Of a DNA stretch of 55,113 bases, positions 5,344 to 49,170 are shown piece by piece. The position numbers and the translations under genes are program-made. Below the pieces are notes generated by a model that saw only the letters and a program-made list of their open reading frames with translations, searched no databases and had not been told where the DNA came from. How positions within the stretch are numbered: the stretch's first letter is position 1; each line of letters opens with the position of its first letter. Source of the DNA: an uncultured Gammaproteobacteria bacterium (GTDB lineage Bacteria; Patescibacteriota; Patescibacteriia; UBA9934; GWF2-40-263); contig CAYNRK010000007.1 of assembly GCA_964399675.1 (NCBI GenBank), forward strand, positions 1-55,113, given 5' to 3'.

Positions 5344-5344
5344 A

Positions 5345-6565: not shown

Positions 6566-7062
6566 GATTTTTTATTTTTCGTTTTCTTTTTCGTTTTCTT
6601 TTTTGTGCGACTTCGCGAAAGAAGTTTTCTAAGTTCTGTTTCAAATGATTTCACATCTTCAAAAGATCGGTAAACGGATGCAAATCGAATATAGGCAACC
6701 TTGTCAAAAGATTTTAAATGTTTCATGACAATATCACCGAGCTCACCTGATGTAAGCTGGCCACGTTTTTTCTTTTGAATGTCCCTTTCTATTTTGTGAA
6801 CTAGCCTATGAAATTTTGAATCCGTATAAGGACGTTTTTCCAAAGCCTTTTCAAGTCCACGAATAAGTTTGTCTCGTGAATAATTCTCACGACGCCCATC
6901 GCGCTTAACAACGTTTAAATCTAAAAGTTCCACCTCTTCATTTGTTGAAAATCTAAATCCACACTTTTCACACTCCCGCCTTCGCCTCACACTTGCCCCA
7001 TCGCTTGAGACTCTTGAGTCAATAACTTTTGTGTCTTTATGATTACAAACCGCACACCACAT
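6562..7062 (-). CDS. nrdR: transcriptional repressor NrdR
   Basis: CxxC...KVIDSR...RRRRECxxC zinc ribbon, ATP cone, VAYIRFASVYRSF. Confidence 0.96.
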   Translation of the reverse strand: MWCAVCNHKDTKVIDSRVSSDGASVRRRRECEKCGFRFSTNEEVELLDLNVVKRDGRRENYSRDKLIRGLEKALEKRPYTDSKFHRLVHKIERDIQKKKRGQLTSGELGDIVMKHLKSFDKVAYIRFASVYRSFEDVKSFETELRKLLSRSRTKKKTKKKTKNKKS

Positions 7063-7120
7063 ATATCGTTTTATCAAAATAATAGTTGCATTATAGCAGA
7101 AAAACAGTGCTACACCAGAA

Positions 7121-7867
7121 TCACTCGTGTTTCTTTACAGCCTCCCGATAGGCGCAATAGTCACAGTCCTTTGATGTTTTTGGGATCTTTTTTGATTCAA
7201 GTGTTTTCTTAATCTTAAGCAATGTTGGCTCAACCCAATCGTCCTTTCCTGTGTAAGGAATAAGATGCACATCAAACTCAAGTTTTCCATCAAACGCCTT
7301 TTCATCCAGCCGGCCTGTGCAGTACACAAAATAACCGGTATCAGAAACTTTGAGTTTGTTTTGACGCAACAGCCACTGATAGATTTCCATTTGTCTTTTA
7401 TAACCATCCTGCCAATCCTGATTAAGTTCTGTCACAGGTTCGCTTTTTGCAGTAGCTTTATAATCCACAACAATATACTCACCCTTTTTGTTTTGCCAAA
7501 GATCATCAATCGCACCTGAGATGAGCATTTTGGTTGGTTTGTGAAGATGTTGAATACCCACAAAATTCTCACGCCACTCATCAATCTTCTCATGCTTTGC
7601 CGGAACAGCATTAATTTTATACTGCTTCTGAATCGGATGCTTAGTCCCCTTTGCACGATGCACATCAAACTCTTGTTTCAAAAGCGCATCCACAGCAGAG
7701 TTAAGATTAAACGGAAACCCCGGCGGCCGCTTTGTTCCAAGTTTATTGTCCAAATAAAAACATCTCGGACAGGAAAGAAAAAGATCAATCTTCGATCGAC
7801 TCAGTTTCCACTTGTCACCGCCGTAGTTCCAGGAGGCAGCGCGGTTGGGGTTGTAGTATTGGGGCAT
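7121..7867 (-). CDS. PD-(D/E)XK nuclease (Cas4/AddB-like, four Cys)
   Basis: LSRSKIDLFLSCPRC, GAIDD...VVDYK, QMEIY, C-terminal CDYC. Confidence 0.85.
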   Translation of the reverse strand: MPQYYNPNRAASWNYGGDKWKLSRSKIDLFLSCPRCFYLDNKLGTKRPPGFPFNLNSAVDALLKQEFDVHRAKGTKHPIQKQYKINAVPAKHEKIDEWRENFVGIQHLHKPTKMLISGAIDDLWQNKKGEYIVVDYKATAKSEPVTELNQDWQDGYKRQMEIYQWLLRQNKLKVSDTGYFVYCTGRLDEKAFDGKLEFDVHLIPYTGKDDWVEPTLLKIKKTLESKKIPKTSKDCDYCAYREAVKKHE

Positions 7868-7872
7868 AGGTT

Positions 7873-8145
7873 TTATTTGTAAATACTTTCAAGTAACTCC
7901 AGCGTTGCCTTAACAGATGGATTGTTTGAATCAAGTAAAACAAGACGATCTTTAAATTCATTCTTTAAATTTGTAAGCACCTCATCGCCCCAAGAAGGAG
8001 AAAACGTAACCACCCCTTCAAAGTCAACCTCAATCTTTTCGTCTGACGCCAGATCCATAAGCATAGGGCGAATTGCATTGTACGCCTCACGTCCAGATTG
8101 TCTTGAAGAAAGTGTTGTGCCGAATTTGCTTAAATGTAATTTCAT
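7873..8145 (-). CDS. DUF4325 STAS-like protein
   Basis: LSSRQSG...IEVDFEGV.TFSPSWGDE. Confidence 0.75.
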   Translation of the reverse strand: MKLHLSKFGTTLSSRQSGREAYNAIRPMLMDLASDEKIEVDFEGVVTFSPSWGDEVLTNLKNEFKDRLVLLDSNNPSVKATLELLESIYK

Positions 8146-8149
8146 ATTC

Positions 8150-8887
8150 TTAAAATGATAAAATGGCTAAGCAGCCAGTGATTGATTTTTTTGTTTCAGT
8201 AATATTTAAATTTTCATCTCCTTTGCCTAATTCAAGAAGTGCATTACCTGTTTTAAATTTTAGTGAAAAAGCGTTGCTGGTTACGATCTTTCTGACAAAT
8301 TTTAAACCGTTTCCTCTATGCTCTGGAGCACGACCTGTTAGTACTTCTGTAAACACAACTTTCAATGCTTTCGCGTGCGTTTGTAACGATGGTCTGACTC
8401 GTGAAATTGTTACCAATACCCCTTGCCCACGATCAGCTAGCACAATTTTTCTGCGCCTCTTGTCAAAACCAAAAAAAATTCCAGGCACATCTTGCCAATT
8501 CCCCAAGTTGTGATCAAAAGAATTATTTCCCATTTCTCCAACCGATGCTGTTATGAGTGAAAAAGTCTGCTCAATATCCGCTATGTTTTGGAGTTGCTGT
8601 TCAAGTGTTTGCAGTCGCAACTGAAAAATATTATTTGATGAGCAATACAAAGTATCAAGAGGCTGCTGTGGGTCATTGTCTAAAACCCATCCCTCAGCAA
8701 TCTTTTCGAGATCTGGCTCATGATCTTGTAAAATAGATTCCAAATCCTGGCGTGAATAATAACGAAAACCACCCTCCTTATTTCTTTTGCTTAAAAGCAG
8801 CCCGGAATCATCCCAACGACGAAGAGTTTGCGCTGAAACCCCAAGCAATCTCGCGGCTTCTGAAATTGTCAGATTGTTATTTTCCAC
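8150..8887 (-). CDS. MerR-type HTH fused to an HATPase-like domain
   Basis: LTISEAARLLGVSAQTLRRWD; EMGNNSFDH (N box), D.GQG, RGNGL. Confidence 0.8.
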   Translation of the reverse strand: MENNNLTISEAARLLGVSAQTLRRWDDSGLLLSKRNKEGGFRYYSRQDLESILQDHEPDLEKIAEGWVLDNDPQQPLDTLYCSSNNIFQLRLQTLEQQLQNIADIEQTFSLITASVGEMGNNSFDHNLGNWQDVPGIFFGFDKRRRKIVLADRGQGVLVTISRVRPSLQTHAKALKVVFTEVLTGRAPEHRGNGLKFVRKIVTSNAFSLKFKTGNALLELGKGDENLNITETKKSITGCLAILSF

Positions 8888-9058
8888 AACTTATACATTT
8901 ACTACTTCTAATTTAGCTGAATTTAGCATAATATATAAACAATTCTCTGTCAAACTTATACATTTTTAAAATTAAAGACAAGAGAGTTCAAAAATTTTTG
9001 TAAACCAAAGGAATTTTATTGTCAACCTTTTGTAAACCCCTACAGCTAGAGATCTTTG

Positions 9059-9202
9059 TCATCTTTTGCCTTTACCCGCATTGTCCAAATAAAAACATTT
9101 CGGACAAGAAAGAAAAAGATCAATCTCCAACCGACTTAGTTTCCGGTTGTTGCCACCGTAGTTCCAGGAGGCCGCGCGGTTGGGGTTATAGTATTGGGGC
9201 AT
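9059..9202 (-). pseudogene. truncated 5' copy 1 of the PD-(D/E)XK nuclease gene
   Basis: 9080-9202 aligns ungapped to 7745-7867, 13 mismatches in 123 bp; reads MPQYYNPNRAASWNYGGNNRKLSRLEIDLFLSCPKCFYLDN. Confidence 0.92.
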
Positions 9203-9244
9203 AATTAAATTTGTTTCATTTTTAGGTGTGCACTAGACCTAACT

Positions 9245-9886
9245 CTACGAATTGTAATATTTAATAGCGACTCCATTATATCGATCAATCAACCCGTCAT
9301 AGACCAATTCAACCAATGGCTCAAAATCTTCATGCTGGTCTATTTGCGCCAATGCTTTCCGGTAACTGTTTTTATTTTGTTGTTCAACCTTGATGGAAAG
9401 ACCAACAAGCCCATGGCTTTCCAGAATCAAATTCGCGGCAAGACGTGCTGTGCGCCCATTTCCATCTCTGAAAGGATGAACGAACGTAATCAAATGATGC
9501 AACCAGGCAGCAACACGAATAACCTGATCAATCAATTCAATTTCTAGATTCTCATCTTGTATACTGTTTTGAATAATCCCTTCCGCCCTTTCAATTTTTT
9601 TCAACCGTTCCTGCAAATCTTCTTCTGCCTTCTTCATAAAATTTGGAACTTCTGAAAAATGCGGAGGATGATGCGATGAATCTGTAATCTTTAAATTTTC
9701 CTCGCGATAGATGCCCGCGATATCCGGCCATGCCTTTTTGAAAATCTCTTGACGAATCTCACAAATCGTCCCTATTGTTATCGGTTTGCGAGATCGAGAA
9801 TGTTTACGAACAAAACGAGAGGCACGGATTACTCCAATCGCCTCTCGCTTCTGTAACTCTTGTTTATCTGAAGGACGCACTGCCAT
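9245..9886 (-). CDS. Fic-domain toxin (class I)
   Basis: canonical HPFRDGNGRTAR motif. Confidence 0.9.
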   Translation of the reverse strand: MAVRPSDKQELQKREAIGVIRASRFVRKHSRSRKPITIGTICEIRQEIFKKAWPDIAGIYREENLKITDSSHHPPHFSEVPNFMKKAEEDLQERLKKIERAEGIIQNSIQDENLEIELIDQVIRVAAWLHHLITFVHPFRDGNGRTARLAANLILESHGLVGLSIKVEQQNKNSYRKALAQIDQHEDFEPLVELVYDGLIDRYNGVAIKYYNS

Positions 9887-9891
9887 AAAAT

Positions 9892-10095
9892 CTAAGAAAT
9901 TTTTTCACCCAATTCATCAAAGTCCTTCCTATCCACCTTACTACCTTCAAGAACACTTGAATAATAAGCATGCTCAATATCCCAACCCTTCTCAAGGGCG
10001 GCTTTTTGTTCCTTACTAAGCACCTCTATTTGTTTACGTGCCGCCTGCATCGTCTCAAAAAGCTGCGCTTTTTTGTCAGTTTTCTGCGTTTTCAT
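9892..10095 (-). CDS. Fic antitoxin (VbhA/FicA-like inhibitory helix)
   Basis: small ORF directly upstream of Fic with YSSVLEGS matching (S/T)xxxE(G/N). Confidence 0.75.
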   Translation of the reverse strand: MKTQKTDKKAQLFETMQAARKQIEVLSKEQKAALEKGWDIEHAYYSSVLEGSKVDRKDFDELGEKIS

Positions 10096-10165
10096 ATAGC
10101 TTACGCTTAAACTTACACACATTACTGCAAAAATCAATGGTTAACACTATTATACCCCAAATATC

Positions 10166-10291
10166 TTATTTGCCTTGTAGATATCTATAATCCCCTCCAA
10201 GAAGAAAACCAATCTTCGACCGACTTAGTTTCCAGTTGTTGCCACCATAGTTCCAGGAGGTAGCGCGGTTGGGGTTGTGGTATTGGGGCAT
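10166..10291 (-). pseudogene. truncated 5' copy 2 of the PD-(D/E)XK nuclease gene
   Basis: 10199-10291 ungapped, 12 mismatches in 93 bp; MPQYHNPNRATSWNYGGNNWKLSRSKI. Confidence 0.9.
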
Positions 10292-10341
10292 ATTATTCTT
10301 GTTCAATATACTTAACATTGACTTTTGAAATTTGCACAGTT

Positions 10342-10758
10342 CTATAACGCGATCAAATATTTTTTTAAAAATTTTTCTGTTCCCTTAATAGCCTCATCCT
10401 TTAATGCAGCAGGGCTACTAGCAATCCAGATAGCAAAATTGTAAAACTCCTGTTGGTCAACTTTCAACCATTTTTTATTTAGGTATAAAAAAGTTAGCAG
10501 TGTTGTAATGGCAATACGTTTGTTGCCATTTTGAAATGGGTGATTTTTAACCATCAGATAAAAAAGCACCGAGGCTTTGCCAATTAAACCACGGTACACA
10601 AACCTGCTATTAAATTTCTGAAAAGGCGCTGCAACGCACCCCTTTAGAATACCTGTAAATCGTGAGCTGAAATCAGGAATCGGTTCATCCTTGGTCATGA
10701 CATCATTAGCGACCTTAAACGCAATGTATTCAACCTCTTTTACAGAAATTAATCTCAT
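10342..10758 (-). CDS. Doc (death-on-curing) family toxin
   Basis: KNHPFQNGNKRIA degenerate Fic motif; 138 aa. Confidence 0.88.
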   Translation of the reverse strand: MRLISVKEVEYIAFKVANDVMTKDEPIPDFSSRFTGILKGCVAAPFQKFNSRFVYRGLIGKASVLFYLMVKNHPFQNGNKRIAITTLLTFLYLNKKWLKVDQQEFYNFAIWIASSPAALKDEAIKGTEKFLKKYLIAL

Positions 10759-10761
10759 ACA

Positions 10762-11034
10762 CTAATTATGCGCGAGCATTTTAAGTGTTGTTCCAAATTC
10801 TTCTATTGTCTTTTCCACAGCAGCATTGATCAGCTCTTTATCAGATTGACGCAATTCTTTACCAAGCAAAGCAGCCACCTCTGATCTAGGAATAGCATAA
10901 TTACGACCAATCTTCTCGGCCCGAAGTTTCCCAGTCTTTATCCGTTTATTTACCGCAACAACACTAATACCCAAAAGCCCAGCAACCTCAGTTGTCGAGT
11001 AAAACCGCTTCTTTTGATCAATTTCTTTTCCCAT
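10762..11034 (-). CDS. excisionase-like HTH protein, probable antitoxin of Doc
   Basis: FYSTTEVAGLLGIS...IKTGKLRAEKIGRNYAI; C-terminal helix ending TLKMLA; coupled to doc. Confidence 0.75.
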   Translation of the reverse strand: MGKEIDQKKRFYSTTEVAGLLGISVVAVNKRIKTGKLRAEKIGRNYAIPRSEVAALLGKELRQSDKELINAAVEKTIEEFGTTLKMLAHN

Positions 11035-11061
11035 ATAGTATATTAACTACTCATAAGTAGG

Positions 11062-11166
11062 TTAATCTATATAAACCAAAAAATCAATCTTCAACTGACT
11101 TGGTTGCCAGTTGTTGGCATAGTGGTTCCAGGAGGTAGTGTGGTTGGGGTTGTGGTAGGGGGGCAT
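11062..11166 (-). pseudogene. truncated 5' copy 3 (most diverged) of the PD-(D/E)XK nuclease gene
   Basis: 11077-11166 ungapped, 22 mismatches in 90 bp; MPPYHNPNHTTSWNHYANNWQPSQLKID. Confidence 0.85.
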
Positions 11167-11185
11167 GTTATTCGATTCAAAAAAT

Positions 11186-12409
11186 TTAATCTGCGGACTG
11201 CATGTCTTTTCCAATTTTTCCTTCAATCATAGCAACCGCGCACTTTCCAATGTGATAACCAAGATTAACAGGAACCGCGTTTCCAATCTGTCGATATTTA
11301 GAAGCAGTTGAACCTTCGAATTGCCAACCGTCTGGAAAGGTTTGAATTCTTGCATATTCCCTAACAGACAAAGGTCTTGTTTTGTCTGGATGACATCTTT
11401 CGGTCTGCTTTTGTGCAGGACTACAAGTTAAAGTTAAAGATGGTTCATTCCAAGAAAGCCTCCTTGCCATACCCGTCCTACCTCCACCATGATAATAACT
11501 TGCGCCCATATATTCCTTTTGTTTTGTTACAGGCAAATCTCTCCAATATCCACCAGGAGGTACCAATTTCAAAATTTCTTTTTTGTGTTGTGGATATTCC
11601 TGACCTTCTGACACAGGACAACCTTTCAATGCTTCCCGCATTGATATTATGTAATTCCGTTCTCTTGGAAAAAGAATTGGCGTGTCCAAATCTTTTCTTA
11701 CGCCAACAATAACAATTCGTTCACGTTTTTGAGGCACATCAAGATACTGTGCCCGGAGAAGTTTCCACGCAACTCTATACCCCAACTCATCAAGTGTTCT
11801 AAGCATCGTTCTCAAAGTCCTTCCGTCATCATGCCTAATCAATCCGCGCACATTTTCTCCGATTGCAATTTTAGGCTGAACTTCTTTAACACATCTAGCA
11901 AATTCATAAAACAAGGTTCCGCGCGTGTCAGTAAATCCTAAACGTTTACCAGCATAGCTGAAAGATTGGCATGGAAAACCACCTTCTACCAAATCAATTT
12001 TTCCAGCAAATTCTGAAAAGTTTATTTTTGAAATATCTTCCTCGATCACATTCCATTTTGGACGATTCAGAGTCAGTGTTCCGCAAGCATTTTTATCAAT
12101 TTCAACAAGCAACTCGTGCCTAAATCCAGAATTCTCCAACCCAAGCGCAGTTCCACCCGCCCCGGCAAAAAGATCAATTGAAGTAAGGTCACTCTTTTTT
12201 GATTTTAAAATCTTGTATTTGCTTTTTTGAAAAACACCGTTAATTTTATTGTTCAATTGTTTGACCGATTCAAGTTCAAACAACCTATGATTGTTGTTAT
12301 CCCTTGCCGCTTGAATCAAGCCTTTCTTTTCCCACCTTCTGATTGTATCAACGGAAACACCAAGAATTTCTGCAGCGTTGTGAACTAATAAAAATTTTTC
12401 CTCGTTCAT
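11186..12409 (-). CDS. DNA (cytosine-5) methyltransferase with N-terminal MerR-like HTH (Eco47II/Sau96I-like)
   Basis: DLFAGAGG, GGFPCQSFS, ENVRG, QKRER, RQIGNAVP; N-terminal AAEILGVSVDTIRRWE. Confidence 0.93.
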   Translation of the reverse strand: MNEEKFLLVHNAAEILGVSVDTIRRWEKKGLIQAARDNNNHRLFELESVKQLNNKINGVFQKSKYKILKSKKSDLTSIDLFAGAGGTALGLENSGFRHELLVEIDKNACGTLTLNRPKWNVIEEDISKINFSEFAGKIDLVEGGFPCQSFSYAGKRLGFTDTRGTLFYEFARCVKEVQPKIAIGENVRGLIRHDDGRTLRTMLRTLDELGYRVAWKLLRAQYLDVPQKRERIVIVGVRKDLDTPILFPRERNYIISMREALKGCPVSEGQEYPQHKKEILKLVPPGGYWRDLPVTKQKEYMGASYYHGGGRTGMARRLSWNEPSLTLTCSPAQKQTERCHPDKTRPLSVREYARIQTFPDGWQFEGSTASKYRQIGNAVPVNLGYHIGKCAVAMIEGKIGKDMQSAD

Positions 12410-12419
12410 ATAAAAAATA

Positions 12420-12454
12420 AATAACCATTGCATTATGCAATGGTTATTATATCA
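12420..12454 (-). promoter_or_regulatory. perfect 14-bp inverted repeat operator overlapping an extended -10 promoter of the MTase
   Basis: aataaccattgcat-t-atgcaatggttatt (12420-12448); minus-strand TGA-TATAAT at 12454-12446. Confidence 0.7.
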
Positions 12455-12466
12455 TGCCTAAATTTT

Positions 12467-13183
12467 TTACATATCCACACCAAATGCCCTTGAAAATAAT
12501 TTCTTAAATTCCGTGTCGTGTGTTGCATTCTGTTCAACGCCTTCAACCAATTCCGCCACAACTTCTGGCAAGGCTCTATACACATCTCGTAAAGCATCTT
12601 TCTTTTTTGATGCCAATTCATAGAATGAATAACCATCGATTACTCTTATTCTTTCATTAACCGGTCTTCTTGTACCCGTTCTGTTATCAGATGGTACAAA
12701 AGGTTTATCATAACGATTTGCTTTTTTTGGAATTATTTCTACATAATATCCAACGTATCCCTTTTCCTCGTTTATTATTTTTTCCAAATCATCATAAATA
12801 CTCGTCTTATGATTCCCCTTTGTTGTGTTGTACTTATTTTTTACCTCAGCAACAATTTTTCTTGCCTTGTTTCGAATATCAACAACATCGCCCCTACCCA
12901 AATCCTCCCATCCAGAAATATGCCCAAGTAGTTTTTGATGAAATTCTCCAATGCTATTTTGCATTGTTTTCTGAATTTGTCTTGCTTGCTCTTTTTTTAA
13001 CCACTCGGTCAAACTTAAATTTGAGTATACTGATTCAAAAACCGCAGAAAAAGGGTCTAATACATTGCTGTAAATTTTTTCTTCTGATTCTTCTTCTGCT
13101 TTTCTGATCGCATCAAGTACAAACTGAACAGCATCTGAAAAATCTGAACTGGAAATAAAGCTGACAAATTTAGAACTACTCAT
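12467..13183 (-). CDS. Type II restriction endonuclease, Eco47II family
   Basis: N.LDPFS, QIQKTMQNSIGEFHQ, VDI...AEVKNKYNT; adjacent to a C5 MTase. Confidence 0.85.
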   Translation of the reverse strand: MSSSKFVSFISSSDFSDAVQFVLDAIRKAEEESEEKIYSNVLDPFSAVFESVYSNLSLTEWLKKEQARQIQKTMQNSIGEFHQKLLGHISGWEDLGRGDVVDIRNKARKIVAEVKNKYNTTKGNHKTSIYDDLEKIINEEKGYVGYYVEIIPKKANRYDKPFVPSDNRTGTRRPVNERIRVIDGYSFYELASKKKDALRDVYRALPEVVAELVEGVEQNATHDTEFKKLFSRAFGVDM

Positions 13184-13233
13184 AAAATAATCTTCTAACA
13201 AAACCCAGCCTTAAGAGCTGGGATCGTAATAAA

Positions 13234-13262
13234 AGTTTATCGATTTTCTAGGGCATGGTCAA
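13234..13262 (-). promoter_or_regulatory. sigma70-type promoter of the REase gene
   Basis: TTGACC, 17 nt, TAAACT on the minus strand. Confidence 0.5.
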
Positions 13263-13331
13263 GCAAATTTTTGACGTAAAAGCGTCTTAGGTTGGGGATT
13301 GGAAGTCTAAACGCTACAATTAACGACCCCT

Positions 13332-13676
13332 CTATTTTTCAATAACAGATTTTATGATTTTACCAACTGCATCCAAAGCATTGAGCGACAAACGGGGCAA
13401 GAATCCAACAATTCCAAAAACACCGAATGCTAGTAAAAACAAATGTGCGAAGTTAAAAACGACTGAATCAGACAAAAAAAGTAAGTCTACAAAAGTGTAA
13501 ATTGCGAGCCACCCAACTAAAGCACTGGAAAAACTGATCCAAAATTTTATCAAGCACGAAACCGGTTTAACGCAAAATTTAAATTGCAAACCAACACCAA
13601 AACCAACAAACACTGAAAAAAACAGAACGATGAAAATGTAGTTCTCTAAAAGAATCGAAATGAATATGTGTTGCAT
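13332..13676 (-). CDS. small hydrophobic membrane protein (about 3 TM)
   Basis: 114-aa ORF directly downstream of hsdR. Confidence 0.6.
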   Translation of the reverse strand: MQHIFISILLENYIFIVLFFSVFVGFGVGLQFKFCVKPVSCLIKFWISFSSALVGWLAIYTFVDLLFLSDSVVFNFAHLFLLAFGVFGIVGFLPRLSLNALDAVGKIIKSVIEK

Positions 13677-13702
13677 AATATTTTGATTTACTTAAAAGTA
13701 AT

Positions 13703-16498
13703 TTACCACTCAAACACATCAACGATATTTTCAATCGCGCTTTTGATTCGTTTAACAATCCCTGATCGTTCAAGAATTCTTGGTTGCTCTGGCATTAAAT
13801 CAACAATGTCCTGACTACGAGGCAGGCGTTGGGTGTACAAATAGTCCCCAATCAATTGCTCAATATTATCAAGTGGAATTTTCTCATCTTTTGCAAGAGC
13901 TTTCAAATTATCAGAACGCTTGCTTGCCCAAAATTTACTAAAGGCCTTTTCAACATCATCTGCCTTTTTAATATTTGGTAAATTCTCTTCAATAAACTTT
14001 CTAATCAAATCTTTCTTTTTTCTAAGCTTCACATCACGATCAAAAATTCGCAAAATATCTTCTGTCTTTTTTTCTCGAACTGCGTCAGAACTAATATTTT
14101 TAAGTCCTGCTATTAGCAAGATAATGTAATCAAAATTTATAATATCTCGAACCGTAAGCTCAAGCTCAAAATCAATCTGATCAAGAATAGATTCATCTTC
14201 GCTTTCATTATTCTTGCGATCTTCATGAACATCTAAATATTTACTTTGATAGTCATAAAATTCTTGTTCTGTAATTCCAAGCTCGACAAATGAAAACTCT
14301 GCAAAAGTTTCAAGCGACGACTTAATGCGCAACAAGTCACGAAATGTTCTCACAAACTCAGCCTTTTCTTCTTCACCCTGCAGAGAATCAACGGACTCCA
14401 CAGTCGGAACCTTTTCGCGCAACTCTTTCAATTTACTCTCAAATTCTTTTTTCTGATCTTCATAAGGCTTCTTAAAAACAACCTCTTTTGCATTTTCATC
14501 TCCATACAAAGCAAGGGCCTTATCAGTAGCTAATTTCAAATTTCTAAATGAGACAATGTTTCCATGTGGCTTGTCAGAATTCAACAAACGGTTGGTACGT
14601 GAATAAGCTTGGATAAGCCCGTGATAACGCAAATTCTTGTCCACATACAACGTATTAAGTCTTGGACTATCAAACCCTGTTAAAAACATATTCACCACAA
14701 GCACAAGATCAACTTCCTTATCTTTGATCCGTTTTTGCAAATCCCTGTAGTAATCATAAAATCGATCTGTTGAAAAATTGGTTGCAAACGTTTTGTTGTA
14801 ATCCTTTATGCAATCTTCCAAAAAATCACGCGAGTGTTTATTTCCAGGAGTTCCCTCACCTGCAAACACATCCACATCAAGCATGTCCGAACTGTCGTCT
14901 TCATTTGCGTGATATGTAAAAATAGTTGCGATTTTAAAATCATCAGACTTTTTCTTTTTAAACAAAGTATAATACTTTTTCAAAACCTCAATACTTGTCA
15001 CTGCAAAAAGTGCATTGAACTTTCCTTTCTTTGTTTTCCGCTTCCAATCCGCCAACACATATTCTGTGATTTTATTAAGGCGATCACTGCTCTCGAGTAC
15101 TTCTTTTGTATCAATTCCCTCAACAAGAGTTTCGGCAAAAATATCCGCATCCACTACATCAGAATCCTTTTGCGTGTATTTGCCAACATACTCAACCGCA
15201 AAGCCAAGCACATTATTATCAGAGATTGCATGAGTGATGATATACCTGTGCAAACATTCATTAAACACATCAGCTGTTGTTACTCCTCCAACATTGTTAT
15301 CAGCAAAAATCGGCGTTCCAGTAAAGCCAAAAAGTTGGGCCTGTTTAAAAAATGTTTCTATTCGTTTATGTGTTTGACCAAATTGACTGCGGTGACATTC
15401 GTCAAAAATGATTATCACTTTTTCATTTTCCAAGTAGTTAAATTGTTTTAAATAAGACTCTCGCCCAATTGCAATATCGAGCTTTTGAATTGTGGTGACA
15501 ATGAGTTTTCTTTTCTTATCTTTCAATTGCTTTACAAGATTACGAGTATTATCAGTTCCATCAACCGATCCGTCAGAAAATGAATTGAACTCTTTTGTTG
15601 TTTGAATATCTAGATCTTTTCTATCAACAACAAACAAGACTTTTTTAACCTCGGGGATTTGTGAAAGAATCTGACTTGTCTTAAATGAAGTTAATGTTTT
15701 ACCAGATCCTGTTGTATGCCAAATGTAACCATTCTTACTTGATTCAAGCACGCGCTTCTCAATGGCTTTGACAGCAAAGTATTGATAAGGACGAAGAACC
15801 ATTGGAATTTTCTTTGATTCAGCAAGAACAATATGCTCAGCAATCATTTCTGAAATAGAACATTTTTCCAAGAATGCTTCCGCAAACTCATCAAGCTTTG
15901 TAATCTTTCTATTATCTACATCCGTCCAAAAAAATGTTTGTTCAAATGATTGCTTTGGATTGTTTGAAAAATACTTCGTATTCACCCCATTTGAAATAAC
16001 AAAAATTTGCACGTATTCAAAAAGTGTTCCAGCAAATGAATGTTTATGATATCGCTGAATCTGATTAAACGCTTCCTTCATTTCCACCCCTCGACGCTTT
16101 AATTCAATCTGAACAAGCGGCAGCCCATTGATTAAAAGCGTAACGTCATACCGATTCTCATACCGACCAACCTGTGTAATCTGCTGGGTAACTTGATATC
16201 GATTCTTACACCACTTATCCATGCAGAAAAAAACAATATACTTGGTACTCTCATCATCTCTTTTCAAAAGAAACCGATCCCGCAAGGTTTTCGCCTTTTC
16301 AAACCGATCGCCTTTTTTAAGATGATTCAAAATTTTCTTAAACTCACCATCAGAAAAAGTCGTTTCATTCAAAAGCTCAAGCTGCACTTTTAAATTTCCA
16401 ATCATTTCTTCCTGATCTTTTATTGTCACCCCTAAAAATCCCAACTGATTAAGTTGTTTGATGAGAGTGTTTTCAAGTTGTTGTTCGGATTGGGGCAT
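13703..16498 (-). CDS. hsdR: Type I restriction enzyme R subunit (EcoR124I-like)
   Basis: RYDV.LLINGLPLVQIELK, WHTTGSGKT, DECHRS, FTGTP, MFLTGFD, QAYSRTNR. Confidence 0.96.
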   Translation of the reverse strand: MPQSEQQLENTLIKQLNQLGFLGVTIKDQEEMIGNLKVQLELLNETTFSDGEFKKILNHLKKGDRFEKAKTLRDRFLLKRDDESTKYIVFFCMDKWCKNRYQVTQQITQVGRYENRYDVTLLINGLPLVQIELKRRGVEMKEAFNQIQRYHKHSFAGTLFEYVQIFVISNGVNTKYFSNNPKQSFEQTFFWTDVDNRKITKLDEFAEAFLEKCSISEMIAEHIVLAESKKIPMVLRPYQYFAVKAIEKRVLESSKNGYIWHTTGSGKTLTSFKTSQILSQIPEVKKVLFVVDRKDLDIQTTKEFNSFSDGSVDGTDNTRNLVKQLKDKKRKLIVTTIQKLDIAIGRESYLKQFNYLENEKVIIIFDECHRSQFGQTHKRIETFFKQAQLFGFTGTPIFADNNVGGVTTADVFNECLHRYIITHAISDNNVLGFAVEYVGKYTQKDSDVVDADIFAETLVEGIDTKEVLESSDRLNKITEYVLADWKRKTKKGKFNALFAVTSIEVLKKYYTLFKKKKSDDFKIATIFTYHANEDDSSDMLDVDVFAGEGTPGNKHSRDFLEDCIKDYNKTFATNFSTDRFYDYYRDLQKRIKDKEVDLVLVVNMFLTGFDSPRLNTLYVDKNLRYHGLIQAYSRTNRLLNSDKPHGNIVSFRNLKLATDKALALYGDENAKEVVFKKPYEDQKKEFESKLKELREKVPTVESVDSLQGEEEKAEFVRTFRDLLRIKSSLETFAEFSFVELGITEQEFYDYQSKYLDVHEDRKNNESEDESILDQIDFELELTVRDIINFDYIILLIAGLKNISSDAVREKKTEDILRIFDRDVKLRKKKDLIRKFIEENLPNIKKADDVEKAFSKFWASKRSDNLKALAKDEKIPLDNIEQLIGDYLYTQRLPRSQDIVDLMPEQPRILERSGIVKRIKSAIENIVDVFEW

Positions 16499-16693
16499 AT
16501 AAGCCTGTTTTAATTGTGTATAAATATCTTGACAAAATGACAGTTTTCTGCCAACATATAAGCATCAATACGAGAAGGGATCCGAATGGCTAACTACCTA
16601 AGGAGCCCTTTTCTTTTTGAATTTTAGCCTTTATTGCTTCTTGATCGAGGTGATCAAAATACTCCGATCCAAGTTTTTTATTTTCCATATTTT

Positions 16694-16768
16694 TCATCTC
16701 AAAAACCCCAATCGGTTAAGTTGTTTGATGAGGGTGTTTTCGAGTTGTTGTTCGGATTGGTGAAGCAT
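16694..16768 (-). pseudogene. truncated 5' copy A of hsdR
   Basis: MLHQSEQQLENTLIKQLNRLGFLR* versus HsdR MPQSEQQLENTLIKQLNQLGFL; 7 mismatches in 60 bp. Confidence 0.92.
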
Positions 16769-16770
16769 AA

Positions 16771-17298
16771 TCAATTTAGCAGACCCATACTTTTTGCTTT
16801 ATCGCTGTCGATTTTTAATAAGGCAACTGAACAATAGCACTTACCCTCATCAATTGGATAGACATGAATCATGTCAAATAAAAATGATGGGAAGTCTTTT
16901 AAATTTAATGTTGCTATGCAAAGGTTTTCTGCATGCCGTAAGGCAAACGCGGTTATAACACAATCTACAAGAGAGGCGCCGCTCAGATCCCTTACCGCAT
17001 ATTCGTAAGCCACCTTTTCCGCTAAATCCATAAGTTCCGCATCTGATGGACGACTAGGCAACGTAACCAATCCTAAATTTTCCCAAAACTCATCCCTTAA
17101 CTTCTTATGTTCAGGAGATTTTGCGCCTTTCATAAACTCAAAACGCACAAACGGAAATGACACTGGGGTGCAACCTGCTTCTTTTAAATCAGAAAAAAAA
17201 CGCGCTGCTTCCTTTGCGTTTTTAAATCCTCGAAGCAGAACGCCTGTATCGATCAAAAGTGAATTTTTGTTAAGTTGTTGTTTCCAATTCACTGTCAT
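16771..17298 (-). CDS. PIN-domain (VapC-like) ribonuclease
   Basis: LLIDTGVL, conserved E, SLVDCVI, IATLNLKDF. Confidence 0.8.
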   Translation of the reverse strand: MTVNWKQQLNKNSLLIDTGVLLRGFKNAKEAARFFSDLKEAGCTPVSFPFVRFEFMKGAKSPEHKKLRDEFWENLGLVTLPSRPSDAELMDLAEKVAYEYAVRDLSGASLVDCVITAFALRHAENLCIATLNLKDFPSFLFDMIHVYPIDEGKCYCSVALLKIDSDKAKSMGLLN

Positions 17299-17419
17299 AT
17301 TGAACCTGACCTTTCTTTTCTTCTTCTGTCAACCGCTCAATCTTTACAGCCAATTCCGCCAATTTCTCAAAATTGGGTTTTTCTGTAGAGATATTTTGTT
17401 TATTTTCTTCCTTCTCCAT
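17270..17419 (-). CDS. small acidic protein, putative antitoxin of the PIN protein
   Basis: 49-aa ORF overlapping the PIN start; inferred from position only. Confidence 0.45.
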   Translation of the reverse strand: MEKEENKQNISTEKPNFEKLAELAVKIERLTEEEKKGQVQYDSELETTT

Positions 17420-17435
17420 ACGTCTATATAATAGC

Positions 17436-17507
17436 TTATTCTTTTCGCTCTGCACAACCTCGCTCAAACACACTCTTTTCAAGTTGTTGTTCGGATTGGT
17501 GGAGCAT
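17436..17507 (-). pseudogene. truncated 5' copy B of hsdR
   Basis: MLHQSEQQLE...; caatccgaacaacaacttgaaaa is identical to the hsdR start region. Confidence 0.85.
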
Positions 17508-17509
17508 GG

Positions 17510-18202
17510 TTAAGATGTAGCCAACTCAGCCAATGCTTTCACGTGTTCCCAGGCTATTCCCATAAAAATATTACTCGTAGCTTGCGGCCCATTTGACACA
17601 ACCCCCACAAGTCTATTTTGCTCTTCTTTCAACACAACTGGAGAGCCGCTAAACCCACCAACAACAGCGCCTGATATTTGCACCTGTTTTTTATTGACAT
17701 CTTGTTTCTTGCTGACACCAACAACGCCTTCAGCATAGGTTGGGGAATGCAGCTCATCTAACAACTTGTCTCCCAATGGAAAACCCGCATATGCCACCTG
17801 GGTTCCAACCAAAGGATATTGCTCCGCAAGCTCAAGACCTTTTGAAGCCTCGCGCTTCAACTCGTCACCTGACAAAAAACTATTGTCGTTCGCTAGAACA
17901 CGCAAAACGGCCAAGTCATGACGCATGTCAATTTGATCAACCATTGCTCTACGATAATTCCCAGCCTCACCAACAACAAGCAATCCAGCCACCTCAAGAG
18001 GAGCAACTAATAAACCACGGACAACATGCTCACAAGTAATCATAACCTCATATTCTTTTAGCCAGAAAGCTGTTCCTATAACATTTAGTTCATCCGAGAA
18101 AATCTTTCCGTCTCGCGGGTTAAATTTAGGCTTAAATATCCCTACAGCCCGCACACTTCCATATACATAAGGATTAACATCACTTGAAGTTGTTTCTGTC
18201 AT
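17510..18202 (-). CDS. trypsin-like serine protease, no signal peptide
   Basis: GTAF, TCEHV (His), DLAVL (Asp), GFSGSPV (Ser). Confidence 0.85.
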   Translation of the reverse strand: MTETTSSDVNPYVYGSVRAVGIFKPKFNPRDGKIFSDELNVIGTAFWLKEYEVMITCEHVVRGLLVAPLEVAGLLVVGEAGNYRRAMVDQIDMRHDLAVLRVLANDNSFLSGDELKREASKGLELAEQYPLVGTQVAYAGFPLGDKLLDELHSPTYAEGVVGVSKKQDVNKKQVQISGAVVGGFSGSPVVLKEEQNRLVGVVSNGPQATSNIFMGIAWEHVKALAELATS

Positions 18203-18219
18203 ATAATACTTAAACTTAA

Positions 18220-18891
18220 TCAAAGATCATTATTTCTTTTTTCAATCCTATCTTTTTCAATTTCCGGCAAAGTCTCGAAAAGGCCCTCCACTTCTTTTTG
18301 TTCCGTGATCATCTTCTCGGCAATAAAATTAATGACATCAAATAACTTTTCAGCAATCTGTTTATCATCCTCAAAATCAATATATCCGGGATGGACTGCA
18401 TGATTTCCAGTCACCCTTACAAAATCAAGTCCTTTTTGAATTGTAGGATTTAAACCCTTGCCTATAAGACTCTTGATATCATTATTAATGTTATCACCTT
18501 TTTCCCCGAGCTGTTTCAATAATTTTTGAAGAGCGAGACGCAATAGAGCAGCCGCTCCTCTTGGTGACTTGTTTAAAATTTTAGCCGCTTCATTGTAATC
18601 GTTTTTTACATCCTCAGACAGATCTTCATTTGGTTCACTGACAGAAATCTCGTCAGGAAAAATTACCTGATCTGAAAACCAAATCATAAATTTTCCACAA
18701 TGACTACATTTGGACATTCGCCATTCTGCATCCAAATTTTCCTGAAACTTAGATAAACGATCGATTGATTCGTCACCCCAAATATGTTTAGCACCAATAT
18801 GGGCCCAAGATTGCATCGCAAAAACCAAACAATGAGGACAATGAAATTGCCCCTCTAAAAGTGTTGGTGGATAATGTTTTTCTTTTTTCAT
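18220..18891 (-). CDS. DUF4145 (HEPN-like) protein with N-terminal zinc ribbon
   Basis: CPHC...CSHC, DYNEA...SPRGAAALLR, R..GNHAVH. Confidence 0.85.
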   Translation of the reverse strand: MKKEKHYPPTLLEGQFHCPHCLVFAMQSWAHIGAKHIWGDESIDRLSKFQENLDAEWRMSKCSHCGKFMIWFSDQVIFPDEISVSEPNEDLSEDVKNDYNEAAKILNKSPRGAAALLRLALQKLLKQLGEKGDNINNDIKSLIGKGLNPTIQKGLDFVRVTGNHAVHPGYIDFEDDKQIAEKLFDVINFIAEKMITEQKEVEGLFETLPEIEKDRIEKRNNDL

Positions 18892-18898
18892 AGTGTTT

Positions 18899-20170
18899 TT
18901 ACACAAACAAACCTTGCATTAACCCCTTCTTCCACTCCTCCGCCTTCACAATCTGCTTTTGCTTTGATTCTATCAACTTATCAAGACTCGTCAAAAATTC
19001 TGCAATTTTTTGTTGTTCCGAGAGTGATGGAATTTTAAATTTCAAATTAGAAAAATCTTTCTTATTTAACATTTGCATGCCACCGGCACCAGCAAACCGA
19101 ATAAGTACATTTTTATTTTTTTCTAATAAGAAATAAAGAAAATTAACTATGTTGGCTTTATTGGGTGTAATAGAATTAATTTGCTGATTGCAACTTCCAT
19201 CAACTTTCAAAACAACATTTTTTCCAATACTAGCAATACAAGTAACTAATAAGCTATCTTTTGGAATAAATCGGCCCTTATCAATTCCTTTCTTTGTTAA
19301 AGACTTGGCTGATACGTAAATATCTTTTTCAGCGCCAATGTCAGTCGGAGTTATCCATGGAAAATCATCGCCATAGTATTTTTTGTTTTTAGTAGACGGT
19401 GTACTACCTGTAATAATCTCACCAACCTCCCCCAACCTCTTCTCCTCCCACTCCCCAAACTCCTCCCCACCCTCATCCTTAAACCCCACCTCTTGCGAAA
19501 AGATTTTTTGCATCATTCCTTTTTTATAAGATTCCAAAGATTCTTTTTGAGACCGCAAATTTTTAATCCATTCATCAACTGATGTCAAAAACTCCGCAAT
19601 CTTTTTTTGTTCCGTTTTTTTGGGTAGATAAAAACTCAACTTTTGAATGTACGATTTAGAAACCCCTAACACCTTTGTTCCCTGAGCTATACGTTTTACA
19701 CCCAACCTGAAAGTCGGACTCTTCAGAAGATGCCCCACAAAGCCCAAAGCCACATTATTGCACTTTCGTTTTAACAATAGAGTGTGCAGACCAGATAAAA
19801 CTTTCTGATTGCCGACATGACAAACTTCAATACCTTTTCCAATATCGGCATAATCCTCTGATGCATCAGCAAGAACCAAGTCGCCGCATTCTACAAAATT
19901 ATTATTAGAATGTTTTGGCTCTTCTCCCGAATTAATAAAAGGAACTCTTTCTCTATTGAGATCAAAATGACTTCTAAACTTTTTGTGAATATCACCATAA
20001 TGGATATTTTTGATTTCGCCAGACTCGTAATTCAACTTATCCCGAGATAAAGAATTCGTTACTCGAAACGAATACACCTCCCCCAACCTTTTTTCCTCCC
20101 ACTCACCAGAAAAACCCGGGAATCTTAATTCCGGAATCATTTTTTTTTGTTTTTCGACCTTTTGTGTCAT
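18899..20170 (-). CDS. hsdS: Type I RM specificity subunit
   Basis: PELRFPGF..EWEEKRLG, two TRDs, duplicated P...EQ.KIAEFLTS.D. Confidence 0.95.
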   Translation of the reverse strand: MTQKVEKQKKMIPELRFPGFSGEWEEKRLGEVYSFRVTNSLSRDKLNYESGEIKNIHYGDIHKKFRSHFDLNRERVPFINSGEEPKHSNNNFVECGDLVLADASEDYADIGKGIEVCHVGNQKVLSGLHTLLLKRKCNNVALGFVGHLLKSPTFRLGVKRIAQGTKVLGVSKSYIQKLSFYLPKKTEQKKIAEFLTSVDEWIKNLRSQKESLESYKKGMMQKIFSQEVGFKDEGGEEFGEWEEKRLGEVGEIITGSTPSTKNKKYYGDDFPWITPTDIGAEKDIYVSAKSLTKKGIDKGRFIPKDSLLVTCIASIGKNVVLKVDGSCNQQINSITPNKANIVNFLYFLLEKNKNVLIRFAGAGGMQMLNKKDFSNLKFKIPSLSEQQKIAEFLTSLDKLIESKQKQIVKAEEWKKGLMQGLFV

Positions 20171-20254
20171 AATGGCTTTTGTAAAAGTAAATCCTTCTGT
20201 GTTGGGATACCGGATGGCGTCTCGTTAAAGCAGAGGGTTTTTTATTTCCCAATG

Positions 20255-21094
20255 TTATTCCAGTTCCTTTTTTTCTTCTCCTCCCCCTAAATAATTTTCA
20301 TCACTTACAACACTTTCATCTGTAGCTTCTTCAAGTTGCTGTCTGGCACTCTTTGCAATGCTGCCACCTTTTTTAGCAGATTGCGCATTTTCATTATAAC
20401 CATGAGACTCATCTTTCTTAGCAATCTTTGTAGTTGACAATTCCGCTAGTGCTGTAAAAATCAATTCAGCTTCTGTCATGGCATCGCGCAAATTTTCTTT
20501 ATCAAGATCTTTCAAATCCTTATGCTGGCCAGTAGTCAAACCGCTCCATTCTTTATGAATGATATTTGTTAACTTTGCATATTCCAAACCTTTTTGAACT
20601 CCACTCTCCTGCCAATAATCAGTCAGCTTATTTCTAATTTCCTGCCCACGCATTCTTTGCTCAATCCATTTTTCAGGCGCACCCATTTTCTTCCAATTCT
20701 CCCTAGCTCTATTTACTGCTATTTCAGGATTAACTATTTCTTGCAATCTCTCATACCCAACCTTAGCCAACCAAAGTTTAAATGGTTCAGCTTTCTTTGA
20801 TGGAACCGACTGAATAATTCTAAAAATTCCCTCAACATGAGAACAATTCACTTTTTGAGGACCGCCTTTTGTTTCAATCGTAAGGGGGGTGGCAATTTGC
20901 CCCCACCCTTCTGAAAGTCCTTCATCACGACGTCTCATGTCCTTAATATAACCGGAAGGATCTTTGCTTTCTGTTAAAACCTCAACAATATCAACAATGG
21001 CAAAATACCATTTTTCTTCTTTTTCTATCCACTTCCTACGCACAGGAAAATCTTCGAATAGGACAATTGTTTTATTTGAATTTTGATCTGACAT
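20255..21094 (-). CDS. Bro-N/antirepressor-like DNA-binding protein
   Basis: WYFAIVDIVEVLT, GIFRIIQSVPSKKAEPFKLWLA, ENLRDAMT. Confidence 0.8.
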   Translation of the reverse strand: MSDQNSNKTIVLFEDFPVRRKWIEKEEKWYFAIVDIVEVLTESKDPSGYIKDMRRRDEGLSEGWGQIATPLTIETKGGPQKVNCSHVEGIFRIIQSVPSKKAEPFKLWLAKVGYERLQEIVNPEIAVNRARENWKKMGAPEKWIEQRMRGQEIRNKLTDYWQESGVQKGLEYAKLTNIIHKEWSGLTTGQHKDLKDLDKENLRDAMTEAELIFTALAELSTTKIAKKDESHGYNENAQSAKKGGSIAKSARQQLEEATDESVVSDENYLGGGEEKKELE

Positions 21095-21105
21095 ATTTTA
21101 TATAT

Positions 21106-22683: not shown

Positions 22684-22724
22684 ATGACGACATTTTACCT
22701 TTATTGAGATAAAAATCAAGAAAT

Positions 22725-29322: not shown

Positions 29323-29404
29323 GTCATTGCGAGACCCGTCAGACGGGCCGAAGCAATCTCCGTTAATACGAGGATTGCTTCGTCGCTTTGCTCCTCGCAA
29401 TGAC
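29323..29404. repeat. REP-like doublet GTCATTGCGAG...CTCGCAATGAC
   Basis: inverted arms gtcattgcgag..gaagcaatc / gattgcttcg..ctcgcaatgac. Confidence 0.8.
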
Positions 29405-48983: not shown

Positions 48984-49170
48984 GTCATTGCGAGGAGCGA
49001 AGCGACGAAGCAATCTCCGTGCAGCTATTTTGCTCTGTCATCTCGACTAAGTGAGCAAAGCGAGCGCACGGAGAGATCTCGCATATTCGAGATCCCTCCG
49101 CTCGCTTCGCTCGGTCGGGATGACATAACAACACGGGGGCTGCTTCGTCGCTTCGCTCCTCGCAAAGACG
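48984..49170. repeat. nested REP-like doublets (outer GTCATTGCGAG family, inner 49036-49125)
   Basis: outer gtcattgcgaggagcgaagcgacgaagca / tgcttcgtcgcttcgctcctcgcaaagac; inner tgtcatctcgac / gtcgggatgaca. Confidence 0.8.

Follow-up and report, generated by a model that had tools for sequence, protein, structure and literature searches.

Remnants of gene termini between toxin–antitoxin and restriction cassettes in a type I restriction locus of a patescibacterium, possibly left by serial insertion with long target duplication

The DNA considered here (“the window”, 55,113 nt) is contig C7 (CAYNRK010000007.1 of assembly GCA_964399675.1) of the 16-contig, 1.09-Mb genome of an uncultured Patescibacteriota bacterium. 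This genome is labelled G000 in our comparisons, where G-numbers denote the compared genomes and L-numbers the compared loci or contigs. We concentrated on its type I restriction–modification (R-M) locus, in which two genes, the restriction subunit gene hsdR and a gene for a Cas4-like PD-(D/E)XK nuclease, are preceded by truncated copies of their own 5' ends (“remnants” or “stubs”) alternating with small cassettes. From 22719 down to 13332 the order is hsdM, a Bro-N gene, hsdS, a DUF4145 gene, a trypsin-like gene, an hsdR stub, a small open reading frame (ORF) with a PIN gene, another hsdR stub, a short insert, the intact hsdR, and a 114-aa ORF. From 13201 to 7121 there follow an Eco47II R-M pair, a nuclease stub, an HTH + Doc pair, a stub, an ORF + Fic pair, a stub, a MerR-HATPase-like + STAS-like pair, and the intact nuclease gene. 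All genes lie on the minus strand, and the cassettes, self-contained and all pointing the same way, bear out the polarised array that an initial annotation of this DNA had described.

The same annotation claimed three truncated copies of the nuclease gene’s 5' end between four cassettes, and both a repeat search of the window and gap-free alignment recovered them. The search gave one family at this gene with four direct copies (7745-7868, 9080-9203, 10169-10292, and 11044-11167), the first of which is the start of the intact gene. A script reproduced exactly the identities to the intact gene previously counted by hand (110/123, 81/93, and 68/90 for copies 1, 2, and 3, numbered outward), as well as the 7 of 13 differences of copy 1 that fall in synonymous codons. 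Each copy begins at its ATG (9202, 10291, and 11166), located 42, 50, and 19 nt past the preceding stop codon, which agrees with the 19–50 nt noted earlier; the ATG of the intact gene lies 5 nt past the stop of the STAS-like gene. Chance similarity as the origin of the copies is ruled out by the blastn E-values (8e-41, 4e-26, and 2e-11 for copies 1, 2, and 3 in a database of about 2 Mb), and no further copies of this 5' end occur elsewhere in the 1.09-Mb genome. The Eco47II R-M pair sits outside the outermost nuclease remnant, and the cassettes between the remnants are unrelated to one another according to family scans.

The concern that the array might be an assembly artefact, raised initially, was checked and the array stands, because the copies differ from each other and the independently assembled contigs of four public runs (two of which may be the source sample) bridge each copy without difference. 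Over 5500-19000, the contigs of these runs contained no joints of deletion variants or cassette circles, although rare variants are invisible in contigs as opposed to reads.

A second repeat family of the window is located at the start of hsdR (16434-16493, 16701-16760, and 17440-17499). The ATG of the nearer hsdR remnant comes directly after the PIN/VapC-like gene and that of the farther one directly after the trypsin-like gene; the small ORF and the PIN gene lie between the two remnants, and a 200-nt insert separates the nearer remnant from hsdR itself. Remnant arrays are not peculiar to the nuclease gene, and the presence of two such arrays at different genes of one window weakens the case for a mechanistic role specific to the nuclease. 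The features are collected in Table 1.

Table 1. Positions of the intact genes, remnants, and cassettes of the two arrays in the window.
Feature	Position	Strand	Evidence
Intact Cas4-like PD-(D/E)XK nuclease gene, 248 aa, anchor of array 1	7121..7867	-	Pfam PDDEXK_1 7e-15
Cassette 1: MerR-HTH/HATPase-like gene (8150-8887) and DUF4325 STAS-like gene (7873-8145)	7873..8887	-	Pfam; HATPase likeness weak
Nuclease 5' remnant, copy 1, 123 nt	9080..9202	-	gap-free alignment, 110/123 identical
Cassette 2: 81-aa ORF without family hit (9892-10137) and Fic-domain gene (9245-9886)	9245..10137	-	Pfam Fic 1.8e-16; PADLOC PDC-S04, SoFic
Nuclease 5' remnant, copy 2, 93 nt	10199..10291	-	gap-free alignment, 81/93 identical
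Cassette 3: HTH_17 excisionase-type DNA-binding gene (10762-11034) and Doc toxin gene (10342-10758)	10342..11034	-	family scans
Nuclease 5' remnant, copy 3, ~89 nt	11078..11166	-	gap-free alignment, 68/90 identical
Type II R-M cassette: Eco47II-family endonuclease (12467-13201) and MerR-HTH/C5 methylase (11186-12433)	11186..13201	-	Pfam
114-aa ORF without family hit, between hsdR and the R-M cassette	13332..13676	-	family scans
Intact type I restriction subunit gene hsdR, anchor of array 2	13703..16498	-	Pfam HSDR_N, SWI2_SNF2, EcoR124_C
Short insert with 35-aa ORF (16590-16697)	16499..16700	-	sequence and ORF reading
hsdR 5' remnant 1, ATG 16768, 90% identical over 60 nt, reads MLHQSEQQLENTLIKQLNRLGFLR*	16701..16768	-	
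PIN/VapC-like toxin gene (16771-17298) and overlapping small upstream ORF (17270-17419)	16771..17419	-	below cut-offs: Pfam PIN 4e-4, NCBIfam VapC 2.7e-4
hsdR 5' remnant 2, ATG 17507, first ~35 nt alike, 24/24 core	17436..17507	-	
Rest of type I module and further inserted genes: Trypsin_2, DUF4145, hsdS, Bro-N, hsdM	17510..22719	-	Pfam

Of 41 related genomes, 20 contain the nuclease gene, as do 166 out of 401 from the phylum as a whole, mostly in a single copy per genome. In L122 the order is hsdM (84% identical), hsdS, hsdR (83%) and, after 55 nt, the nuclease gene (68%); in G033 the nuclease gene comes immediately after hsdR; and in G005 the series hsdM..hsdR..nuclease is continued by NrdR-HtrA-pyruvate kinase, representing the frame of the window without the array. 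This plain order in three relatives suggests that the window holds a compact conserved hsdM-hsdS-hsdR-nuclease module whose gene junctions have been stuffed with cassettes. L122 and G033, the single-nuclease loci without insert, belong to other genera, and their nucleases are 68-71% identical to that of the window. Searches for closer relatives gave best protein identities of 79% (metagenome scan), 81% (genome-contig scan), and 73% (family search), with no conspecific genome among them. In L035 and L118 (nuclease 79% identical) the gene is located between fusA and tuf of the str operon together with several small ORFs and, about 1 kb downstream, a homologue of cassette 3 (an HTH-Doc pair, 64-70% identical), so that the gene and the cassettes also change their genomic context; no remnants were detected at these two nuclease loci.

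Comparison of the gene start with relatives, which the initial annotation had proposed as a check, revealed terminal remnants at nuclease orthologues in seven other contigs or genomes. A nucleotide scan of 95 loci with a full nuclease gene detected extra gene pieces in six of them: the window, L036 (one 5' and one 3'), L043 (5'), L061 (3'), L080 (3'), and L084 (two 5' and two 3'). A further short stub, at the 3' end in L068, emerged when loci were compared in pairs (7/95 loci in all), and among 35 further loci a remnant was found only in G204, which had been included because it showed a second match. The G204 5' stub (~270 nt, 95% identical over 245 aligned nt) lies upstream of a Bro-N-like gene. 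The 14 remnants at these eight nuclease loci are strictly polar: the eight 5' pieces are all upstream, the six 3' pieces are all downstream, all are on the strand of the gene, and none of the 14 is an internal fragment. In addition, a short contig of G073 that lacks an intact nuclease gene has a lone N-terminal piece of it behind an hsdR-like gene, and this piece is followed by an apparent AbiEi/AbiEii pair (judged by eye, without a family scan). The cassettes at the other remnant loci include a C5-methylase + HNH pair, DUF4268, RhuM, a HATPase-DUF4325 fusion, a histidine phosphatase, and several unknowns.

In G204, interspersed repeats and a 478-nt block occupy the spacer that separates the nuclease stub from the Bro-N-like gene (L115:5940-6780). 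The block shares 84% identity with DNA preceding the nuclease gene of G442 (L159), which has no stub.

Similar polarity was found in a control scan, which looked around each of 1519 genes, and outside long genes, for additional copies of its 120-nt pieces. With 5' ends there were 48 hits, belonging to 28 genes and including several paralogue clusters or interspersed repeats. With 3' ends there were 14, belonging to 11 genes, and every one was downstream on the gene's own strand. Two internal pieces yielded four and two hits. A protein-level scan showed the same polarity. We did not count the “5'-end” hits in tandem lipoprotein-like paralogue clusters, in REP-like elements, and in a GC-rich stretch with doubtful ORFs. 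The third gene with such a remnant is holA-like (G000:C8:38156-39127): it is followed by an RHH + PIN pair and then, just before the next gene, by a stub of its own C-terminus (14/23 residues identical), this case (G000:C8:38156-39875) being clear at the protein level only and weak at the DNA level.

At G000:C2:4621-4768 there is an exact 74-nt tandem duplication of the 3' end of gene 4716-5579 with nothing inserted, which may represent a bare duplication step without a cassette. Hits of 32-47 nt to ~317-372 of the gene region in L112/L108 were dropped, being present on many contigs and representing an interspersed repeat rather than remnants. An interspersed element of ~35-70 nt occurs in the window (29365-29404 and 49130-49169), on many G000 contigs, and near the nuclease gene in L112/L108, and gave rise to spurious remnant hits, which were discarded.

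The polarity of the remnants bears on the suggestion that they are decayed tandem paralogues, the nuclease gene or a gene block having been duplicated repeatedly and all copies except one cut to the first ~100 nt. Two full nuclease copies do occur in some genomes (e.g., G018, G334, and G106), and the nuclease/HATPase/STAS order in G033 is a circular permutation of that in the window. We consider such decay highly improbable, since the cassettes between the remnants are mutually unrelated, only termini survive, with 5' pieces upstream and 3' pieces downstream (14/14), and many independent deletions of matching polarity would be needed.

The junctions are variable. The 5' stubs end at about +29, +56, +81, +85, +95, +96, +123, and +270, and the 3' stubs start ~30 to 107 nt before the stop; 13 of the 14 nuclease remnants span 30 to ~270 nt and one spans 29 nt, the hsdR remnants measure 60-68 nt and ~35 nt (the exact core of the latter is just 24 nt), and no junction motif is common to the remnants. 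In L061 the 3' duplication extends beyond the stop codon into the downstream spacer, and in G204, and likewise between copies 2 and 3 of the window, the similarity takes in a few bases upstream of the ATG. Homology of copies 2 and 3 past ~+95 is not claimed, the alignment being unconvincing in AT-rich sequence. The sister contigs L084 and L068 have nuclease genes 92% identical, downstream flanks 99% identical, and an identical outermost 3' remnant allele, while their cassettes differ on both sides; cassettes have evidently been swapped within a fixed gene–stub frame.

The earlier statement that the array has no integrase and no attC was confirmed on the contig and by an inverted-repeat scan. 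No recombinase domains were detected with Pfam among 20 distinct window proteins, and no integrase genes on contig C7; the sole Phage_integrase (PF00589) hit of the genome is at C8:22813-23340, and two Resolvase hits are also off C7 (the three hits being on C8, C11, and C12). The scan of 7000-13400 revealed no attC-like hairpins recurring at the cassette ends.

Polarised arrays of gene-end repeats are a known outcome of tandem accretion by site-specific recombinases. Integrase-less elements bearing a gene terminus as the attachment site might have been accreted here by a recombinase acting in trans, as are cis-mobilizable elements beside integrative conjugative elements (ICEs) or islands at ssrA. 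This would be in line with the clustering of some junctions and with the one tyrosine and two serine recombinases encoded on other contigs. Nevertheless, we regard this origin as unlikely. Remnants of 29 to ~270 nt (5') and ~30 to 107 nt (3') lacking a common junction motif argue against one recombinase with one fixed crossover site, a separate specificity would be required for each of the two unrelated target genes of the window, no recombinase was found among 20 neighbouring proteins scanned at the other remnant-bearing loci, and the cassettes are just 0.2-2 kb long.

To the initial annotation copies 1 and 2 looked like other alleles, since they have common variants absent from the intact gene. 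These variants are real: when the first 87 nt of the intact gene and of copies 1-3 were compared, all three remnants agreed against the intact gene at 6 sites. Three sites split the intact gene and copy 1 from copies 2 and 3, and the private sites number 11 in copy 3, 4 in copy 1, and 2 in copy 2. The pairwise differences per 87 nt are 11 between the intact gene and copy 1, 11 between the intact gene and copy 2, 10 between copies 1 and 2, 14 between copies 2 and 3, 18 between copies 1 and 3, and 21 between the intact gene and copy 3. Copy 3 is most diverged from the intact gene, whereas in-place copying under purifying selection would make the intact gene its least diverged partner. The private synonymous changes of the intact gene (4 of the 6, in ~17.7 synonymous sites) were compared with the private changes of copy 1 (5 in 87), giving Fisher p = 0.045 in a post hoc test on small numbers.

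Similar indications come from the other loci. Both hsdR remnants start with MLHQSEQ, having one extra codon as compared with MPQSEQ of the intact hsdR, and both types occur in relatives (MSHQSEQ in L122, matching the remnants, and MPQSEQ in G033). A three-way comparison for G204 gave 95.1% identity for each pair among its stub, its intact gene, and the G298 orthologue (another species of the genus), so that all three are equidistant. These data lend modest support to the view that the remnants are imported alleles rather than plainly decayed resident 5' ends: the 6 of 87 sites and the hsdR start types speak for it, and the small number of sites and the closeness of the window remnants to their own gene speak against it. 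Since each remnant of the window is nearest to the window’s own gene at the nucleotide level, any donors would be close kin; distant donor alleles were considered because L039 has the GGNNW..KIG motif of copy 2 at the protein level, yet were rejected on the DNA comparison. The linked proposal that a fresh 5' end arrives with each cassette gains the same modest support, the arrival itself being something we infer.

An alternative is that each duplication arose in place. Foreign DNA would be captured at a double-strand break with staggered ends, or at two nicks, 30-270 nt apart, and the ends would be filled in, so that the remnant and the gene start would be identical at first and diverge later, as hypothesised by the group that studied long target duplications; Furuta et al. 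(PMC2853133) propose double-strand breakage as a common property. The final anatomy would be identical to the one observed, the L061 duplication running into the spacer fits well, and all remnants are nearest to the window’s own gene at the nucleotide level. We consider this explanation not very likely, since the three nuclease remnants agree with one another at sites where the intact 5' end stands apart, the codon indel that separates the hsdR remnants from intact hsdR matches a natural allele type, and the G204 remnant is no closer to its own gene than to its orthologue in a different species. Moreover, one break would have to fall beside a start or stop codon every time, unless selection removes the other outcomes.

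The array was also described initially as time-ordered. Identity to the intact gene does fall with distance (89, 87, and 76% for copies 1, 2, and 3). However, a strict order is weakened because copies 2 and 3 group together (three common states, similar ends near +95, and a few common bases upstream of the ATG), and because the intact gene, copy 1, and copy 2 are about equidistant (11, 11, and 10 differences).

The anatomy and polarity of the arrays, their recurrence at three genes and at eight nuclease loci, and the variable junctions were observed directly. Because of the lack of an integrase on the contig, the lack of attC-like hairpins, and the variable length of the remnants, we read the arrays as the result of serial insertion with long target duplication, which would be anchored by homology in a conserved gene and use no dedicated recombinase; on balance we lean towards this explanation, with considerable reserve. 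We suppose that DNA from related strains would enter the cell carrying a different cassette next to the same conserved gene, and that the incoming DNA would pair with this gene by homology. If the incoming piece were circularised, one crossover might fix it; alternatively, a break within the terminal 30-270 nt of the resident gene might be the site where it is copied or joined. The resident 5' end would be pushed outward as a dead remnant, the complete gene would be left beside the new cassette, and the mirror image would arise at the 3' end at orthologous loci. The outcome would be a cassette flanked by a long direct duplication of a gene terminus, and in this way the junctions of the module could be filled serially by small self-contained defence or toxin–antitoxin cassettes. 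Long identical repeats would probably be lost by recombination, so that short or diverged ones survive, and an addictive toxin–antitoxin or R-M cargo would resist loss. The G204 stub (95%), which is the youngest, is also the longest. It is the recombination route and the new allele arriving with each cassette that we infer here.

The genome encodes ComEC and RecA, and Patescibacteria are described as retaining homologous-recombination genes and taking up DNA (PMC12455944). R-M units that lack mobility genes and lie between direct target duplications of 30 bp to ~400 bp are reported, for the most part from competent species, in PMC2853133, which treats the mechanism of insertion with long target duplication as unsolved. 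Transformation can create duplications via alternative pairing between sister chromosomes (PMC3784515).

Several points weigh against serial insertion anchored by homology. One-ended homologous recombination alone duplicates no terminus, and a circle, an interchromatid event, or break-copying must be assumed. No conspecific pair of empty and filled sites and no donor were found, the nearest nuclease orthologue having 81% protein identity. Among 87 orthologous 5' ends, all three window remnants are nearest, at the nucleotide level, to the window’s own gene, which keeps duplication in place with later divergence in play, and the allele evidence consists of few sites and a post hoc test. Some junctions recur: the short 3' stubs of L084, L068, and L061 start within ~7 nt of the same Cys codon, those of L084 and L068 have a common 1-nt deletion at this codon although their cassettes are unrelated, and copies 2 and 3 of the window end near the same place (~+95). 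This clustering hints at a preferred site. Finally, remnants are far commoner at the nuclease gene (7/95 loci) than at ~1400 other genes (a handful), an enrichment which a pure “any conserved gene” model would not predict and which weakens it. The enrichment may be caused either by strong conservation of the gene inside variable islands or by its own activity.

The latter possibility requires a closer look at the nuclease itself. Its protein matches the PADLOC Cas4 models with E down to 8.5e-13 and stays below the curated Cas4 cut-offs (43 bits vs 65 for TIGR00372; 21.9 vs 22.7 for Pfam Cas_Cas4), and its neighbours in the window and at the compared loci are type I R-M genes, with no cas genes. 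It is thus a PDDEXK_1 family member, rather than a Cas4 proper, and its Cas4 likeness is limited to the Cys motifs.

Cas4-family enzymes process DNA ends, and the nuclease might promote capture by cutting within or beside the gene that encodes it, and perhaps hsdR, so that the breaks trap cassettes, the locus serving as an integrase-free acquisition platform. The strong enrichment of remnants at the nuclease gene (7/95 loci and G204), their occurrence at both gene ends, and the position of hsdR as the usual neighbour are in line with such capture. We consider it very unlikely, since no sequence or biochemical evidence points to self-targeting, the junctions are variable, the holA-like gene, which is far from the nuclease gene, likewise has a gene-end remnant and a PIN cassette, the genome contains further duplications of 3' ends, and 88 of the 95 nuclease loci have no remnant. 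The mechanistic involvement of the nuclease suggested initially finds little support, given the same architecture at hsdR and the weaker, protein-level case at the holA-like gene.

A broader version, in which the nuclease gene is an active docking platform whose product, perhaps with the adjacent type I enzyme, breaks the borders of its own gene and thereby captures cassettes, is also doubtful. It is kept in view because remnants are far commoner here than at other genes, because they affect either end of the gene and span several distant lineages, and because some junctions recur. If true, it would mean an integrase-free, integron-like collection of immunity genes in the streamlined Patescibacteria.

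Insertion of R-M units with long target duplication was reportedly described by Nobusato et al. in 2000. According to Furuta, Abe and Kobayashi (2010, PMC2853133) it involves a small defence unit without mobility genes, as here. The unit is bounded by direct repeats of >30 bp that correspond to a single-copy target in other genomes, and the cases come mainly from naturally competent bacteria. The repeats at our nuclease gene (123, 93, and 89 nt) also exceed 30 bp, and transposase, integrase, and phage genes were not seen in or beside the units here either. The differences are that the cargo consists mostly of toxin–antitoxin and other small defence genes, the three remnant-bounded cassettes being HTH/Doc, ORF/Fic, and MerR-HATPase-like/STAS-like pairs rather than R-M units, and that the target is always a conserved gene terminus, with arrays of up to three, allele-like repeats, and a patescibacterial host with a 1.09-Mb genome.

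The likeness to integrons and chromosomal superintegrons, noted initially, holds as an analogy only. The common features are a one-way array of small cassettes rich in toxin–antitoxin genes, with the newest one probably beside a fixed anchor; unlike integrons, the array has no intI, attI, or attC hairpins, its cassettes seem to bear promoter-like sequences of their own, and its separators are pieces of protein-coding genes. Tandem accretion at gene ends is known from the 3' end of fda, where cis-mobilizable elements lie beside ICEs, and from SXT at the 5' end of prfC, and the islands at ssrA in Dehalococcoides are reported to be another example (PMC3146451). There, too, a new terminus for the target gene comes with each arriving element, earlier termini accumulate as direct repeats, and integrase-less members occur; however, those systems have a fixed repeat length and an integrase nearby or known, in contrast to the nine-fold range of length found here and the absence of recombinases from the window and from the 20 proteins scanned at other remnant-bearing loci. 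The array is not an integron, and we do not count it among the site-specific accretion systems.

Two recombination processes offer further parallels. In homology-facilitated illegitimate recombination (see PMC3240628), foreign DNA is fixed via one homologous anchor. The classical events usually delete recipient DNA and do not duplicate a terminus. In transformation-induced merodiploidy (PMC3784515), alternative pairing can yield duplications, and the merodiploids span 100-900 kb. Both processes serve as analogies for arrays like that of the window.

Orphan toxin/immunity arrays are located downstream of rhs and cdiA genes. As in the window, displaced gene termini with short conserved stubs gather beside an intact gene, in that case via homologous recombination; however, the displaced piece there is an alternative functional end of the anchor protein, whereas here the stubs are dead and the cassette genes are independent. 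The array is best filed with insertion with long target duplication, its new features being the cargo, the gene-terminus targets, the stacking, the involvement of both gene ends, and the patescibacterial host. A limited literature search found no published description of gene-end remnant arrays with a toxin–antitoxin cargo.

How defence islands acquire genes where no transposase or integrase takes part still awaits an explanation. In the locus and its relatives, a single conserved gene has undergone a natural series of events at either end and in several lineages, and the varied junctions and allele-like repeats of this series point to homology-anchored capture, which yields predictions testable in competent model bacteria. 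Moreover, the data indicate that the ultra-small Patescibacteria, which rarely have classical mobile elements, can still stack toxin–antitoxin and restriction cassettes inside a type I restriction operon.

Most of the initial gene labels were upheld by Pfam, NCBIfam, or PADLOC: PDDEXK_1/Cas4-like, DUF4325 (STAS-like), MerR HTH, Fic, Doc, HTH_17, C5 methylase with MerR HTH, and Eco47II endonuclease. The exceptions are “FicA”, an 81-aa ORF without a family hit, and “HATPase”, a weak label based on one 25%-identity alignment to a HATPase_c_2 protein (E 2e-4). Homologous MerR-HATPase-like/STAS-like pairs occur near the nuclease gene in L021 and L052, and a fused gene lies directly upstream of it in L043. 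Because the pair is near the nuclease gene in just these three other loci, on either side, we treat it as a cassette and reject a functional nuclease–HATPase–STAS trio. Promoter-like sites (21 vs 17.5 +/- 3.5 in shuffles) show no excess after the remnants and were not used as evidence.

Some other elements of the cassette region deserve mention. A 75-nt stretch (13193-13267), which overlaps the start of the Eco47II gene and includes a GC-rich hairpin at 13204-13222, is 96% identical to G000:C2:77084-77158, located there just upstream of a Bro-N-like gene, and Logan contigs fork at this stretch; either a promoter/leader module common to both places or a joint at which cassettes recombined may be represented by it. 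Between the Eco47II endonuclease and methylase genes (12420-12448) there is a perfect 14 + 14 nt palindrome with its arms 1 nt apart, which could be a control-protein operator or a terminator. Outside the R-M locus, the minus strand of the window contains a 3518-aa ORF (29414-39970) with several internal repeat families.

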